Positions 37,842-44,647 of a DNA stretch of 51,600 nucleotides are shown in pieces. Numbering within the stretch: the first letter of the stretch is position 1; each line of letters begins with the position of its first letter. A program made the translations under genes and the position numbers. The notes under the pieces are model-generated. The model saw only the letters and a list, made by a program, of their open reading frames with translations, did not search any database and was not told where the DNA came from. The DNA comes from Deltaproteobacteria bacterium (GTDB lineage Bacteria; Myxococcota; JACRCW01), in contig JACRCW010000033.1 of assembly GCA_016218805.1 (NCBI GenBank), forward strand, positions 1 through 51,600, written 5' to 3'.

Positions 37842-37919
37842 CCCCAGCGTGAGCCGGAGCAGCGGCGCTGGTTGGGGCGTTGTGGTAGAGCGAACGCGCG
37901 TCGTATTGGGTGGAGCGTC

Positions 37920-39920
37920 ATGGCGGTTTGTCCCAACTGCAGTACCCAGGTTGCTGACGGGGCACGCTTCTGCCCCTCGTGCGGCAGCACCGTTCCCCAG
38001 GTCCCCGCCGGCGAAGAAGCGGACCCGTTCATTGGCAAAGTCATTGCCCGGAACTTCCGCGTGGAGAGCCTGCTGGGGACGGGTGGCATGGGGCGCGTCT
38101 ACAAGGCGCGTCAGATTTCGCTGGACAAGCCGGTGGTCCTCAAGGTCCTGCACCCGCACTTCAACAGCGACCCGCAGCTGGTCCAGCGCTTCCAGCGCGA
38201 AGCCCGCGCCGCCTCCCGCCTCAACCACCCCAACTCCATCTCCATCATCGACTTTGGCCAGGCTGAGGACGGCACGCTGTTCATGGCCATGGAGCTGTTG
38301 CACGGCAAGGACCTGTTCACGCTGCTGCAGGAGGAGTTCCCGCTGCCGGAGGAGCGGCTGGCCCGCATCATGGTGCAGGTGTGCAGCGCCCTGGCTGAAG
38401 CGCATGCCCAGAACATCATCCACCGTGACCTCAAGCCGGAAAACATCATGGTGGAGGACCGGCGTGACCAGAAGGACTTTGTGAAGGTGCTGGACTTTGG
38501 CATTGCCAAGATCCAGGACCCGTCCGACGGGGACGGCCGCGCATTGACCCAGCAGGGCATGGTCTGCGGCACCCCGGAATACATGAGCCCCGAGCAGGCC
38601 CGCGGCGAGAACCTGGACGCGCGCAGCGACATCTACGCGCTGGGCGTGTTGATGTACCAGCTGGTCACCGGTGACCTTCCGTTCAAGGCGGAAACGGCGC
38701 TGGGCATTGTCACCAAGCACATCACGGAGCGGCCTCGCTCTCCGCGCCAGACGCGCCCGGACCTGCCCATCTCTGACGAGGTGGAAGGCATCATCCTCAA
38801 GTGCATGGAGAAGCGCGCGGACCAGCGCTTCCAGGGCGCCACGGAACTGGGCCAGGCGTGGAAGGACTTCCTGGAGGCGCGCCAGTCCGCCGCCCGGGGC
38901 GCATCGTCGTCGGCTCACACAATACGGTCCGGCACGCTCCCGCAAGGGATGGGTCAGGTGTCCGTGGCCGCCGCCCCCGCGCCACGCGCCATCTCCGCGG
39001 ACCCGTTGCCCAAGACGGAAGCGTCCTTCTCCGTCTCCAATCCGGCCAACGCGGTGGCACCGCCTTCCGTGGTGAAATCATCCACCATGGTGGAGACCCC
39101 GGCGCGGCCGGAGGCGCCGGTCCCCAGCAATGGAAGCGCCGCCCCGGCCACCCCAGCTCCGCTCCCCCAGCGCTCCGCTACGGACGACGAACTGGACGCC
39201 ATCAAGCCGCGCCGCACGGGGCTGTTTGTGGGCCTGGGAGCGGCGGCCCTGGCGGTGGTGGCCGGAGTGGGGTTCATGGCCACCGGGTCTGGCAATGGCA
39301 CGGACGCCAAGCCCGCGCCGGTGGCCGTGGCGGACCCGCCGCCGCCGCCCAAGGATCCCCCGCCGCCGCCGGACAAGCCCGTCCAGAAGGATCCGGAGCC
39401 CGCACACGCCAAGGAACCGGTTGCCGCCAAGGAGCCCACTCCCGCCGCCAAGGAGCCCACGCCCGCCGCGAAGGAGCCCACGCCCGCCGCGAAGGACCCG
39501 GCGCCTGCCAAGGATCCGGTGCCGGCGGCCAAGGAACCCCGCCCGGCAAAGGATCCCACACCGGCCCGGGAGCCCCCGCCGCCCGCCGACAAGAAGGCAG
39601 CGCGCAACCCGCCGCAGAAGGACCCCGAACCTGCCGCACCGGCGGGCGGGGACGACCGCGCCGAGGCCGTCAGGGAGATCGTCAAGCGGGCGGAGAAACG
39701 CATGAGCGGTGGCGACTACGACGAGGCCATCAAGCTGCTGCAGCAGGCCCGCAAGGGCGCACCGCAGGAGGCGGTCCCGGCCTACCTGCTGGGCAACGCC
39801 ATGCTGGCCAGCGGCGACCAGGAGGGTGCGTGCTCGTCGTGGAAAGACGCGTTGCGCCTGGGGCCCAAGGACTCGCGCGCGGCTGGCGTGAAGAAGAAGA
39901 TGGGCCTGATGTGCCACTGA
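37920..39920 (+). CDS. Hanks-type Ser/Thr protein kinase (Zn ribbon-kinase-TM-Pro-rich linker-TPR)
   Basis: CPNC..FCPSCG; GTGGMGRVY, VLK, HRDLKPEN, DFG, GTPEYMSPEQ; TM LFVGLGAAALAVVAGVGF. Confidence 0.97.
   Translation: MAVCPNCSTQVADGARFCPSCGSTVPQVPAGEEADPFIGKVIARNFRVESLLGTGGMGRVYKARQISLDKPVVLKVLHPHFNSDPQLVQRFQREARAASRLNHPNSISIIDFGQAEDGTLFMAMELLHGKDLFTLLQEEFPLPEERLARIMVQVCSALAEAHAQNIIHRDLKPENIMVEDRRDQKDFVKVLDFGIAKIQDPSDGDGRALTQQGMVCGTPEYMSPEQARGENLDARSDIYALGVLMYQLVTGDLPFKAETALGIVTKHITERPRSPRQTRPDLPISDEVEGIILKCMEKRADQRFQGATELGQAWKDFLEARQSAARGASSSAHTIRSGTLPQGMGQVSVAAAPAPRAISADPLPKTEASFSVSNPANAVAPPSVVKSSTMVETPARPEAPVPSNGSAAPATPAPLPQRSATDDELDAIKPRRTGLFVGLGAAALAVVAGVGFMATGSGNGTDAKPAPVAVADPPPPPKDPPPPPDKPVQKDPEPAHAKEPVAAKEPTPAAKEPTPAAKEPTPAAKDPAPAKDPVPAAKEPRPAKDPTPAREPPPPADKKAARNPPQKDPEPAAPAGGDDRAEAVREIVKRAEKRMSGGDYDEAIKLLQQARKGAPQEAVPAYLLGNAMLASGDQEGACSSWKDALRLGPKDSRAAGVKKKMGLMCH
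39408..39580 (+). repeat. Intragenic 18-21 bp tandem repeats encoding AK(E/D)P.PA
   Basis: GCCAAGGAGCCCAC(T/G)CCCGCC-like units repeated about 8-9 times with variation. Confidence 0.85.
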
Positions 39921-42771: not shown

Positions 42772-43515
42772 ATGTCCGGCGCCGACGTTCAACTCACCGA
42801 CAAGGGGCGCGACGCCGTCCGACGCGCACGCATGCTGTTCCTCCCGCTGCGCGTGCTCGTCGTCATCGGCCTGGCGTCGCTGCCCGCGGGTGGGCTGAAC
42901 GCGGCCCTGGGGCATGAACGCCTGCGCATCTTTCTGGCGGCGCTGGCGGTGATGATCGCGCTGGAGCGCACGGGGATCACCGCGGACCCCTCCGCGCGCA
43001 GCCGTGACCGGGCCAGCAAGATTCTCCTCGTCGTCGGCAGCTTCCTGGGCTTCCTGATTGGCGTGCGCGAAGTTGCCACCGGGCGGCCACTGCTGCCCGC
43101 GCTGCCGCTGGTTGACGACGGGCTGGTGCTGGCCGCGGGGCTGGTGACGTGGGGCGCGGGGCTGGCCGTGCGGCAGTGGGCCATGCGCACGCTGGGGCGG
43201 TTCTTCACCGACCGCGTGCGCATCTTCACCGACCACCGGCTCATCACCGAAGGTCCGTACCGCTGGGTGCGCCACCCCAGCTACGCGGGGCTGGCGCTGG
43301 TGCTCGCCGGGGCGCCGCTGGTGCTGGGGAGCACGCTGGCGCTGGTCATTTCCGTCGTGGCGGGCGGGTCCGCGCTGGCGTTCCGCGTCCGCGTGGAGGA
43401 GGCGGCGCTGCGGGCGGCTTTTGGTGACCAGTACACGCGTTACGCGCAACGGACGCCCGCGCTGCTGCCGTGGCCGCGTCCAGACGGCGCTGCACCGCCA
43501 CCGCCCGCGCCATGA
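42772..43515 (+). CDS. Isoprenylcysteine carboxyl methyltransferase (ICMT/Ste14) family membrane protein
   Basis: TLGRFF...HRLITEGPYRWVRHPSYAG...EEAAL..FG..Y..Y. Confidence 0.92.
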   Translation: MSGADVQLTDKGRDAVRRARMLFLPLRVLVVIGLASLPAGGLNAALGHERLRIFLAALAVMIALERTGITADPSARSRDRASKILLVVGSFLGFLIGVREVATGRPLLPALPLVDDGLVLAAGLVTWGAGLAVRQWAMRTLGRFFTDRVRIFTDHRLITEGPYRWVRHPSYAGLALVLAGAPLVLGSTLALVISVVAGGSALAFRVRVEEAALRAAFGDQYTRYAQRTPALLPWPRPDGAAPPPPAP

Positions 43516-43897
43516 GCGCGGGGAGGGCCTCGGTGACGTCTTCACCGTGGAGTTCACCCAGCGTCAACCAGCGCGCCTCTGCCGCGTCACTGCCCGCGCG
43601 CAGGGCGCCCCCGGTGATGCGGCACAGGTAGTCCGCCACGACGTAATGGTGCCCCACCGCGCCGTCCCGGGTGCGCTCCACGTACTCGTACAGGCACAGC
43701 AGCCTGCCCGGTTCCACCTCCAGGCCCGTCTCTTCGCGCGCCTCACGGCGCACCGCGTCCGCCAGCCGCTCCCCCGCATCCACGCGCCCGCCCGGCACGC
43801 TCCACGCGCCCGCACGCGGGGCGTGACCGCGCCGGATGAGCAGGACGCGCTCACCGTCCACCAGCACCGCCCCCACGCCCATCACCGGACCGCTCAT
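43346..43897 (-). CDS. NUDIX hydrolase
   Basis: WSVPGGRVDAGE..AVRREAREETGL; GSDAAEARW; 3' tail overlaps the ICMT gene. Confidence 0.9.
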   Translation of the reverse strand: MSGPVMGVGAVLVDGERVLLIRRGHAPRAGAWSVPGGRVDAGERLADAVRREAREETGLEVEPGRLLCLYEYVERTRDGAVGHHYVVADYLCRITGGALRAGSDAAEARWLTLGELHGEDVTEALPALMARAVAVQRRLDAATAAARASVARNACTGHQKPPAAPPPPRGRGTPARTRPPRRK

Positions 43898-43942
43898 GGC
43901 TGCACGCAGCGTGACGCGCTAAGCATGCGGCGCGGAGGCAGC

Positions 43943-44179
43943 ATGAAAGTGTCCATCACGTATTGCGCAGTCTGAGGGTACCAATCCCGCGCCGCAGGTC
44001 TTGCGGCGGAAATCAAGCAGCAATGGAATGTGGAAACCACGCTGGTGCCGGGCAGCGGCGGCGTCTTTGACGTCGTGGTGGATGGCACGGAAGTGTTCTC
44101 CAAGCACAAGGTCGGCCGCCACGCGGCACCGGGCGAGTGCGTGCAGCTCATCAAGTCGCACCTTGGCGCGGCGCCGTAG
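43943..44179 (+). CDS. SelW/SelT/SelH (Rdx family) selenoprotein with CxxU motif, 78 aa
   Basis: GGAGG RBS; MKVSITYCAV-TGA(43973-75)-GYQSRAAGLAAEIK...GSGGVFDVVVDG..VFSK..GR...TAG; Rdx homology continues in frame past TGA. Confidence 0.92.
43976..44008 (+). promoter_or_regulatory. Bacterial SECIS element
   Basis: CGCCGCA-GGTCT-TGCGGCG perfect 7-bp stem (43990-44008); loop G lies 21 nt after UGA; resembles the E. coli fdhF GCAGGUCUGC tip. Confidence 0.8.
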
Positions 44180-44647
44180 TCACGGCGGCGGGGCCTTGTC
44201 CTTCTCCGGGTCCGCAATGCGGCTGCGGATCTCATAGGGCACGTCCAGGTCCCCAAAGAAGAACCGCGTGGTGACCACGCCGCGGGTCACGGAGTTGATC
44301 TCGCCCTTGCCAAACGCGCTCCCCAGCCCGCCCAACGCGGCGCCCCAGCCCAGCTGCATGGGGAACTCCAGCGGGACCTCACCGCGGCCGGGCACAGTGA
44401 ACGGTGTGTCGTAGACGCCCTTGCCCGCCGGCTTGTCCTCCACGACGAGCTCATACGTAATGCGCACGGTGGTCACGTCAAACAGGTTGGGATTGCGCAC
44501 GGTGAGGAACGCGGTGAGCGTGGTGCCCCCCAGACCCACGCCGCTCATGCGCAGGTCCGTCAGCGTGAGCTGCGGGGACTGGAACAGGAGTTGGCAGCCG
44601 GCCAGTGACACCAGCAGCGGGATGGCAAAGCGCAGACGGCGGAGCAT
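44180..44647 (-). CDS. LEA type 2 / WHy domain lipoprotein
   Basis: Lipobox LAGC; LTVRNPN hallmark; stop abuts the SelW stop. Confidence 0.85.
   Translation of the reverse strand: MLRRLRFAIPLLVSLAGCQLLFQSPQLTLTDLRMSGVGLGGTTLTAFLTVRNPNLFDVTTVRITYELVVEDKPAGKGVYDTPFTVPGRGEVPLEFPMQLGWGAALGGLGSAFGKGEINSVTRGVVTTRFFFGDLDVPYEIRSRIADPEKDKAPPP

Follow-up and report, generated by a model that had tools for sequence, protein, structure and literature searches.

A SelW-like (Rdx) gene with an in-frame UGA and a bacterial SECIS element, truncated by annotation in an uncultured Myxococcota genome

Introduction

Bacterial SelW-like selenoproteins with the motif CxxU have been described since 2005 by Zhang, Gladyshev and colleagues. 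They represented the most abundant selenoprotein family of the Sargasso Sea set, with 48 genes, in a report that calls the function of the family unclear and assigns the SECIS element of eukaryotic SelW to a different type (PMC1088965). The GOS set contained 427 SelW-like genes (PMC2398784), and the family was detected in 10 bacterial genomes, including deltaproteobacteria (PMC1794560). SelW-like proteins are listed under the Pfam family PF10262, and annotation pipelines truncate such genes (PMC13188914). Our literature search found no paper dealing with selenoproteins or selenocysteine in metagenome-assembled Myxococcota.

The window analysed here is the whole stretch of 51,600 nucleotides of contig JACRCW010000033.1 (positions 1 to 51,600), from a Deltaproteobacteria bacterium of the GTDB phylum Myxococcota (assembly GCA_016218805.1). 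The genome assembly comprises 6.43 Mb in 170 contigs and is 92.4% complete. An initial annotation had read one short gene of the window as a SelW/Rdx gene with a UGA decoded as selenocysteine (Sec), a SECIS element and a place in a Sec-using lineage, overlooked by gene callers. The results below support this core claim.

Results

Reading frame and annotation of the gene

The features of the locus are collected in Table 1. The reading frame opens with MKVSITYCAV, encounters the in-frame TGA and continues for 67 further codons up to a TAG stop; the ribosome-binding site, start codon, internal TGA and stop codon are all where the initial annotation had placed them. The gene has no entry in the list of open reading frames of at least 60 amino acids, and the protein database entry for the locus (P0002) is limited to a product of 55 amino acids whose start lies 3' of the UGA, which confirms that the gene had been missed. 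No sigma-70-type promoter was found for it, and no RNA dataset holding the window was listed. The gene, which gene finders break off at the internal UGA, in all probability specifies a small redox protein with selenocysteine, from a bacterial family that is common and has long been known.

Table 1. Coordinates of the SelW-like locus and of its flanking genes in the window
Feature	Position	Strand	Basis or remark
NUDIX hydrolase gene, divergent	43346..43897	-	45-bp gap to the SelW-like gene
Shine-Dalgarno-like GGAGG	43934..43938	+	4 nt before ATG 43943; sequence
Predicted SelW-like/Rdx selenoprotein gene	43943..44179	+	78 aa, C8-x-x-U11; PF10262, TIGR02174, fold
Cys8 codon TGC of the CxxU motif	43964..43966	+	end of strand beta-1
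In-frame UGA, probably selenocysteine	43973..43975	+	TGA in 90/91 homologous loci; opposite Cys of CxxC homologs
Bacterial SECIS	43990..44008	+	7-bp stem, 5-nt loop GGUCU (43997-44001); within the coding sequence
LEA_2/WHy-domain gene, convergent, probably lipoprotein	44180..44647	-	0-bp gap

Protein family and predicted fold

In profile searches the read-through product matches the Pfam family Rdx (PF10262) with 63.4 bits (E 2e-17, cut-off 22.6), as the initial annotation had anticipated, and the NCBIfam family TIGR02174 CXXU_selWTH with 52.2 bits (cut-off 34.2); the equivalog threshold of NF041051 SelTWH_Campy is not reached (82.4 bits, 88 needed). The product contains the motif C8-A-V-U11 after strand beta-1 and the sequence GGVFDV, which corresponds to the family motif G-x-F-[DE]-[VI]. 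An AlphaFold2 model, built from an alignment of 11 sequences with Cys put in place of Sec (pLDDT 88), displays a minimal thioredoxin-like fold in which Cys8 ends strand beta-1 and residue 11 lies in the loop before helix 1. All the top Foldseek matches of the model are SelW-related. The Cys-containing bacterial SelW-related structures compared were 2FA8 (Atu0228), 2OBK, 2OKA, 3DEX, 2OJL and 2P0G; the model superposes on 2FA8, 2OBK, 2OKA and 3DEX with TM values of 0.83-0.89, and 2FA8 is also detected by sequence (E 3e-9). In the three alignments shown, the solved bacterial proteins have CxxC and U11 is found opposite their second Cys. Mouse SelW (2NPB) gives a TM of 0.68 to the model, and MIEN1 (2LJK) is among the related structures. 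Motif and modelled fold suggest that the product is a small cytoplasmic thiol/selenol oxidoreductase.

Conservation of the UGA among homologs

An Rdx match was detected in 10 of the 61 genomes sampled from this phylum, and each of the 11 matches contains one TGA. These 11 matches, the window's own included, and the best 80 of 201 loci from a genome-wide scan make up the 91 loci examined. The motif is C-x-x-TGA in 89 of them, TGA-x-x-TGA in one and unreadable in one; no Cys codon occupies the UGA position in any of the 91 loci, which come from many phyla. No Cys-type DNA homolog was recovered among these loci with which the hairpin could be compared. CxxC forms exist among the database proteins (2 of 10 aligned). 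The initial annotation had proposed looking for C or U at this codon, and the homologs have UGA in 90 of the 91 loci and Cys in the CxxC database proteins. Two database homologs (P0003 and P0008) show W at this position. TGA is the main stop codon of the genome, ending 2422 of 2721 well-scored long ORFs.

The SECIS hairpin

The hairpin is formed by the strands CGCCGCA (43990-43996) and UGCGGCG (44002-44008), with 21 nt between the UGA and the first G of the loop. It is both the minimum free energy and the centroid structure in the five segments folded. Its folding energy alone is not significant in this genome of 70% GC (z of -0.2 to -1.7); a perfect 7-bp stem whose loop begins with G at +18 to +26 follows only 272 of the 154,462 TGA triplets of the genome (0.18%). 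The published bSECIS model asks for a loop of 3-9 nt, a stem of 4-16 bp, a G in the first two loop positions, a spacing of 16-37 nt and an MFE of -7.5 kcal/mol or lower (PMC13188914). Applied by hand, without the program bSECISearch, it accommodates the hairpin in every respect, with a loop of 5 nt, a stem of 7 bp, a GG start, a spacing of 21 nt and -13.2 kcal/mol for a segment of 34 nt. The Rfam search gave no SECIS family match, only three chance matches below the gathering scores.

Covariation was analysed on an ungapped alignment of 85 distinct stretches of 42 nt, compared with 500 shuffles. The seven stem positions are paired in 82% of cells (71% in shuffles) and carry 49 double-sided changes (12 in shuffles); no shuffle reaches either value, with the reservation that these statistics overstate significance because the homologs are kin and not independent. 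The number of pairs with a double-sided change is not exceptional (73 of 500 shuffles). The true stem register outscores all six slid registers (seven tried). The third-codon-position pairs +21/+27, +18/+30 and +15/+33 are paired in 74, 73 and 57 of 86 sequences for expected values of 58, 50 and 38, respectively, and the location of the changes in the stem, mainly on silent third codon positions, says more than the inflated counts. The G at +23 is present in 86 of 86 sequences, a position that the amino acid also fixes. The silent position that follows carries U in 62 of 63 sequences of the main group; elsewhere in the same genes, 72 of 485 Gly and Ser(AGY) codons end in U. The loop-closing pair is A-U here (1 of 86), G-C in the sister genome and C-G in most others, and the hairpin uses three consecutive codons that this genome otherwise avoids. 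This rare closing pair and the three disfavoured codons in a row indicate that selection has maintained the hairpin along the branch of this genome. The alignment indicates that the SECIS element is under selection; covariation and model values bear out the claim of a hairpin with a G-started loop just 3' of the UGA. The homolog set provides a clean example of a SECIS element maintained through silent sites.

In the SelW-UGA loci of Acidimicrobiia, the hairpin is 2-4 nt nearer to the UGA than in the main group and the loop is often GUG at +19, which suggests that the actinobacterial SelW-UGA group has a different SECIS register.

Genomic neighbourhood

The distances and orientations of the two flanking genes (Table 1) agree with the initial annotation. 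The data give no support to the stress/redox cluster that it had proposed: the three genes do not share one orientation, a NUDIX ortholog adjoins the SelW-like gene in one of 90 other loci (that of the same-family genome; there is one weak unrelated NUDIX match besides) and the LEA gene in none of the 90. Among the neighbours, the NUDIX, methyltransferase and aldehyde dehydrogenase genes are retained in position in the same-family genome alone. The surroundings of the gene say nothing about the role of the SelW-like protein. Elsewhere in the window, a Ser/Thr kinase ORF (37872-39920) displays a linker (39130-39400) with several short AKEPTPA-type repeats.

Selenocysteine machinery

The initial annotation had pointed to selA, selB, selD and tRNA-Sec as the genes to be sought, and the last two were found. 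The tRNA-Sec (C19:92472-92569, 98 nt, 72.7 bits) combines the anticodon UCA with acceptor and T stems of 8 and 5 bp, respectively, and is the sole UCA tRNA reported by ARAGORN. The gene selD, on contig C28, has its own in-frame TGA and hairpin, as in three of three class relatives. SelD is 61% identical to that of the sister genome, and the SelW-like protein 64%. Neither selA nor selB, not even a remnant, was detected in the 92%-complete assembly with curated models, nor with unfiltered profiles built from relatives and run on the six frames with stops read through. This absence does not refute the Sec reading, because the genome is incomplete. No selU was found in the genome.

Both selA and selB are present in three of three family and class relatives, and in all eight other genomes with an Rdx-UGA gene tested from the phylum sample, selA being in pieces in one of them. 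Among the homolog genomes, 50 of 80 were tested for the two genes: selA is present in 47 of these 50 carriers of the SelW-like gene, versus 15 of 40 relatives overall, and selB is above the cut-off in 41 of 50. Both genes are missing in 2 of the 50 carriers, one sub-cut-off match being read as EF-Tu.

The missing selA block

The gene order in relatives is selA, an HNH gene, a MinD-like gene. Several genomes devoid of selA retain an ortholog of the MinD-like gene with about 50% identity; here only a paralog of 35% identity was detected. The neighbours of selA are thus missing as well, and it is the whole block that is absent from the assembly, not selA alone.

The window is present in four groundwater runs from a single study, with shares of 0.99, 0.74, 0.68 and 0.19; run X1 may be the source of the assembly. 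In X1, a contig of 1092 bp (depth 24.1) aligns to the selA of the sister genome over 277 bases at about 81% likeness, and a contig of 1924 bp (depth 24.3) covers the HNH and MinD-like genes at 80-85%, in the order and with the spacing of the sister genome. Short pieces at the same places of the selA block occur in runs X2 and X3 at a depth of 3-4. Both X1 contigs are shorter than the smallest contig of the bin (2225 bp). For reference, orthologous DNA is mostly 76-78% alike between this genome and the sister genome, and selA is 68-70% alike between more distant members of the class. The read comparison covered the selA block, in a sample that contains many other selA-like contigs, and we infer that the two X1 contigs are probably unbinned pieces of this organism.

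An assembly gap is the most likely explanation for the missing selA and selB. Two separate gaps may be needed, the two genes being on different contigs in each of the three close relatives. Further signs of an incomplete assembly are the two EF-Tu-like matches, both cut at contig ends (C66 and C68), and the lack of tRNA-Asp and tRNA-Ile among the ARAGORN predictions for the assembly. Synteny did not reveal where the selA gap lies. The selA block of two class relatives adjoins a small conserved gene and rluD, which here lie in the middle of a contig with other neighbours, but the same-family genome is also without that link. The neighbours of selB are not conserved among relatives.

A tRNA array around an HNH gene was also observed (C19:178-3881), with 12 tRNAs detected by ARAGORN and more tRNA-like elements recognized by eye. 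It is followed by an ORF of 545 codons which we take to be RtcB-like.

Other selenoprotein candidates

TGA codons were found in none of 17 AhpC/TSA matches of this genome, whereas the sister genome has them in 4 of 24; one possible counterpart has Cys (37% identity). Three molybdopterin-domain matches contain no TGA in the matched stretch, outside which a FdhA-type Sec may lie. Searches for GrdB and UGSC gave no match but were uninformative, the controls giving no match anywhere either. An ab initio selenoprotein scan was too noisy; its filtered form left 17 candidates, of which only the SelW-like gene is convincing, and since it missed SelD itself it sets no bound on the selenoproteome, which looks small.

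Two Rdx-UGA genes occur in the same-family genome, along with four further Prx/TlpA-like genes that contain a UGA followed by a hairpin. A putative form of the SelW-like gene with two UGA codons (UxxU) and the same single SECIS was observed in one Planctomycetota genome (L088:1288-1299) and in 38 of 40 metagenome matches to a pattern, mostly on low-GC contigs, many of them marine by collection name. The bacterial family is given as CxxU with one Sec (PMC13188914), and UxxU forms of SelW are known in amphioxus and an alga (PMC7539508). No report of a bacterial UxxU SelW was found in the literature searched; the supplements of these papers may list such forms, or this lineage.

Discussion

Proposed reading and its alternatives

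We consider it highly likely that the locus is a working SelW-like (Rdx) selenoprotein gene decoded in the ordinary bacterial way, in an organism that has selA and selB outside its binned assembly. Two facts weigh against this view: the two missing genes are unlinked, and the genome seems to encode few selenoproteins. SelD makes selenophosphate, and SelA turns Ser-tRNA-Sec into Sec-tRNA-Sec. SelB would bind the hairpin at its G/U loop, 21 nt 3' of the UGA, and bring Sec-tRNA-Sec to this UGA, codon 11. In the protein, the selenolate of Sec11 would attack an oxidised protein thiol or disulfide, Cys8 would resolve the intermediate into a selenenyl-sulfide, and cellular thiol systems would re-reduce it. 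Both the SelB-guided insertion and the Cys8/Sec11 selenenyl-sulfide cycle are proposed here from established knowledge.

It is improbable that SelA and SelB are truly absent from the organism while tRNA-Sec, SelD and the SECIS-containing gene are kept, whether through an unrecognised recoding route or because the trait has just been lost. Under a recent loss, selA and selB would have been deleted and translation would end at the UGA after 10 residues, leaving the SelW-like gene, selD and selC as relics of intact appearance. The lack of any trace of selA and selB in the assembly, the smaller number of selenoproteins than in the sister genome and the absence of a selU that would keep selD useful are in line with such a loss, but the three independent would-be relics are all undamaged, the identities of SelD and of the SelW-like protein to their sister counterparts are ordinary, and the SECIS has acquired a lineage-specific compensatory pair. 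Moreover, contigs of the selA block with family-level likeness occur in the likely source run, neighbours of selA unrelated to selenium are absent too, and the same double absence is seen in 2 of 50 other genome bins; a recent loss is for these reasons improbable.

A non-canonical decoding, by a diverged or unrelated factor replacing SelA and SelB or by insertion of Cys via another tRNA, would account for a genome that has a SECIS under selection, a tRNA-Sec and a SelD of the Sec type but yields no SelA or SelB in sensitive profile searches. Against it, the close relatives all have ordinary SelA and SelB, the tRNA-Sec has the canonical bacterial 8/5 form and ARAGORN reports no second UCA tRNA, and a SelA of ordinary likeness is found in the likely source run; we regard this decoding as very improbable. 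The least credible reading, to which we give hardly any weight, is that the UGA is a nonsense mutation, a sequencing error or a Trp or Gly codon of a genome-wide code. The W of two database homologs could be cited for it, and would most simply come from gene callers applying a UGA=Trp code. The near-complete conservation of the UGA, its position opposite the second Cys of CxxC proteins and the predominance of TGA among stop codons all contradict it; stop-codon use and UGA conservation largely refute a general reassignment or a nonsense mutation. The locus would have a larger significance only if a closed genome were truly devoid of selA and selB.

Comparison with described systems

The SECIS had been qualified as fdhF-like, which holds for the tip of the hairpin only. 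Compared with the SECIS of Escherichia coli fdhF (NC_000913.3), the 8-nt tip with its GGU loop start is the same and both elements lie inside the coding region, whereas the loop G is at +19 in fdhF and at +22 here, one codon further from the UGA. The fdhF element has a bulge and a long lower stem; the present one has neither, being an unbroken 7-bp stem with a 5-nt loop. The exact match of the tips is partly a coincidence, because most relatives close the loop with C-G.

With respect to the family, the initial annotation rightly detected a gene lost in annotation, but the locus holds no new biology: one more wrongly annotated gene joins a bacterial selenoprotein family that is very common, and its presence indicates that an uncultured lineage uses selenocysteine. 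No difference of kind from the known bacterial SelW-like proteins was found. The product shares with them its size, the N-terminal CxxU, the motif G-x-F-D/E-V, the fold and an in-gene SECIS with a G-started loop, here in an uncultured groundwater lineage of 70% GC.
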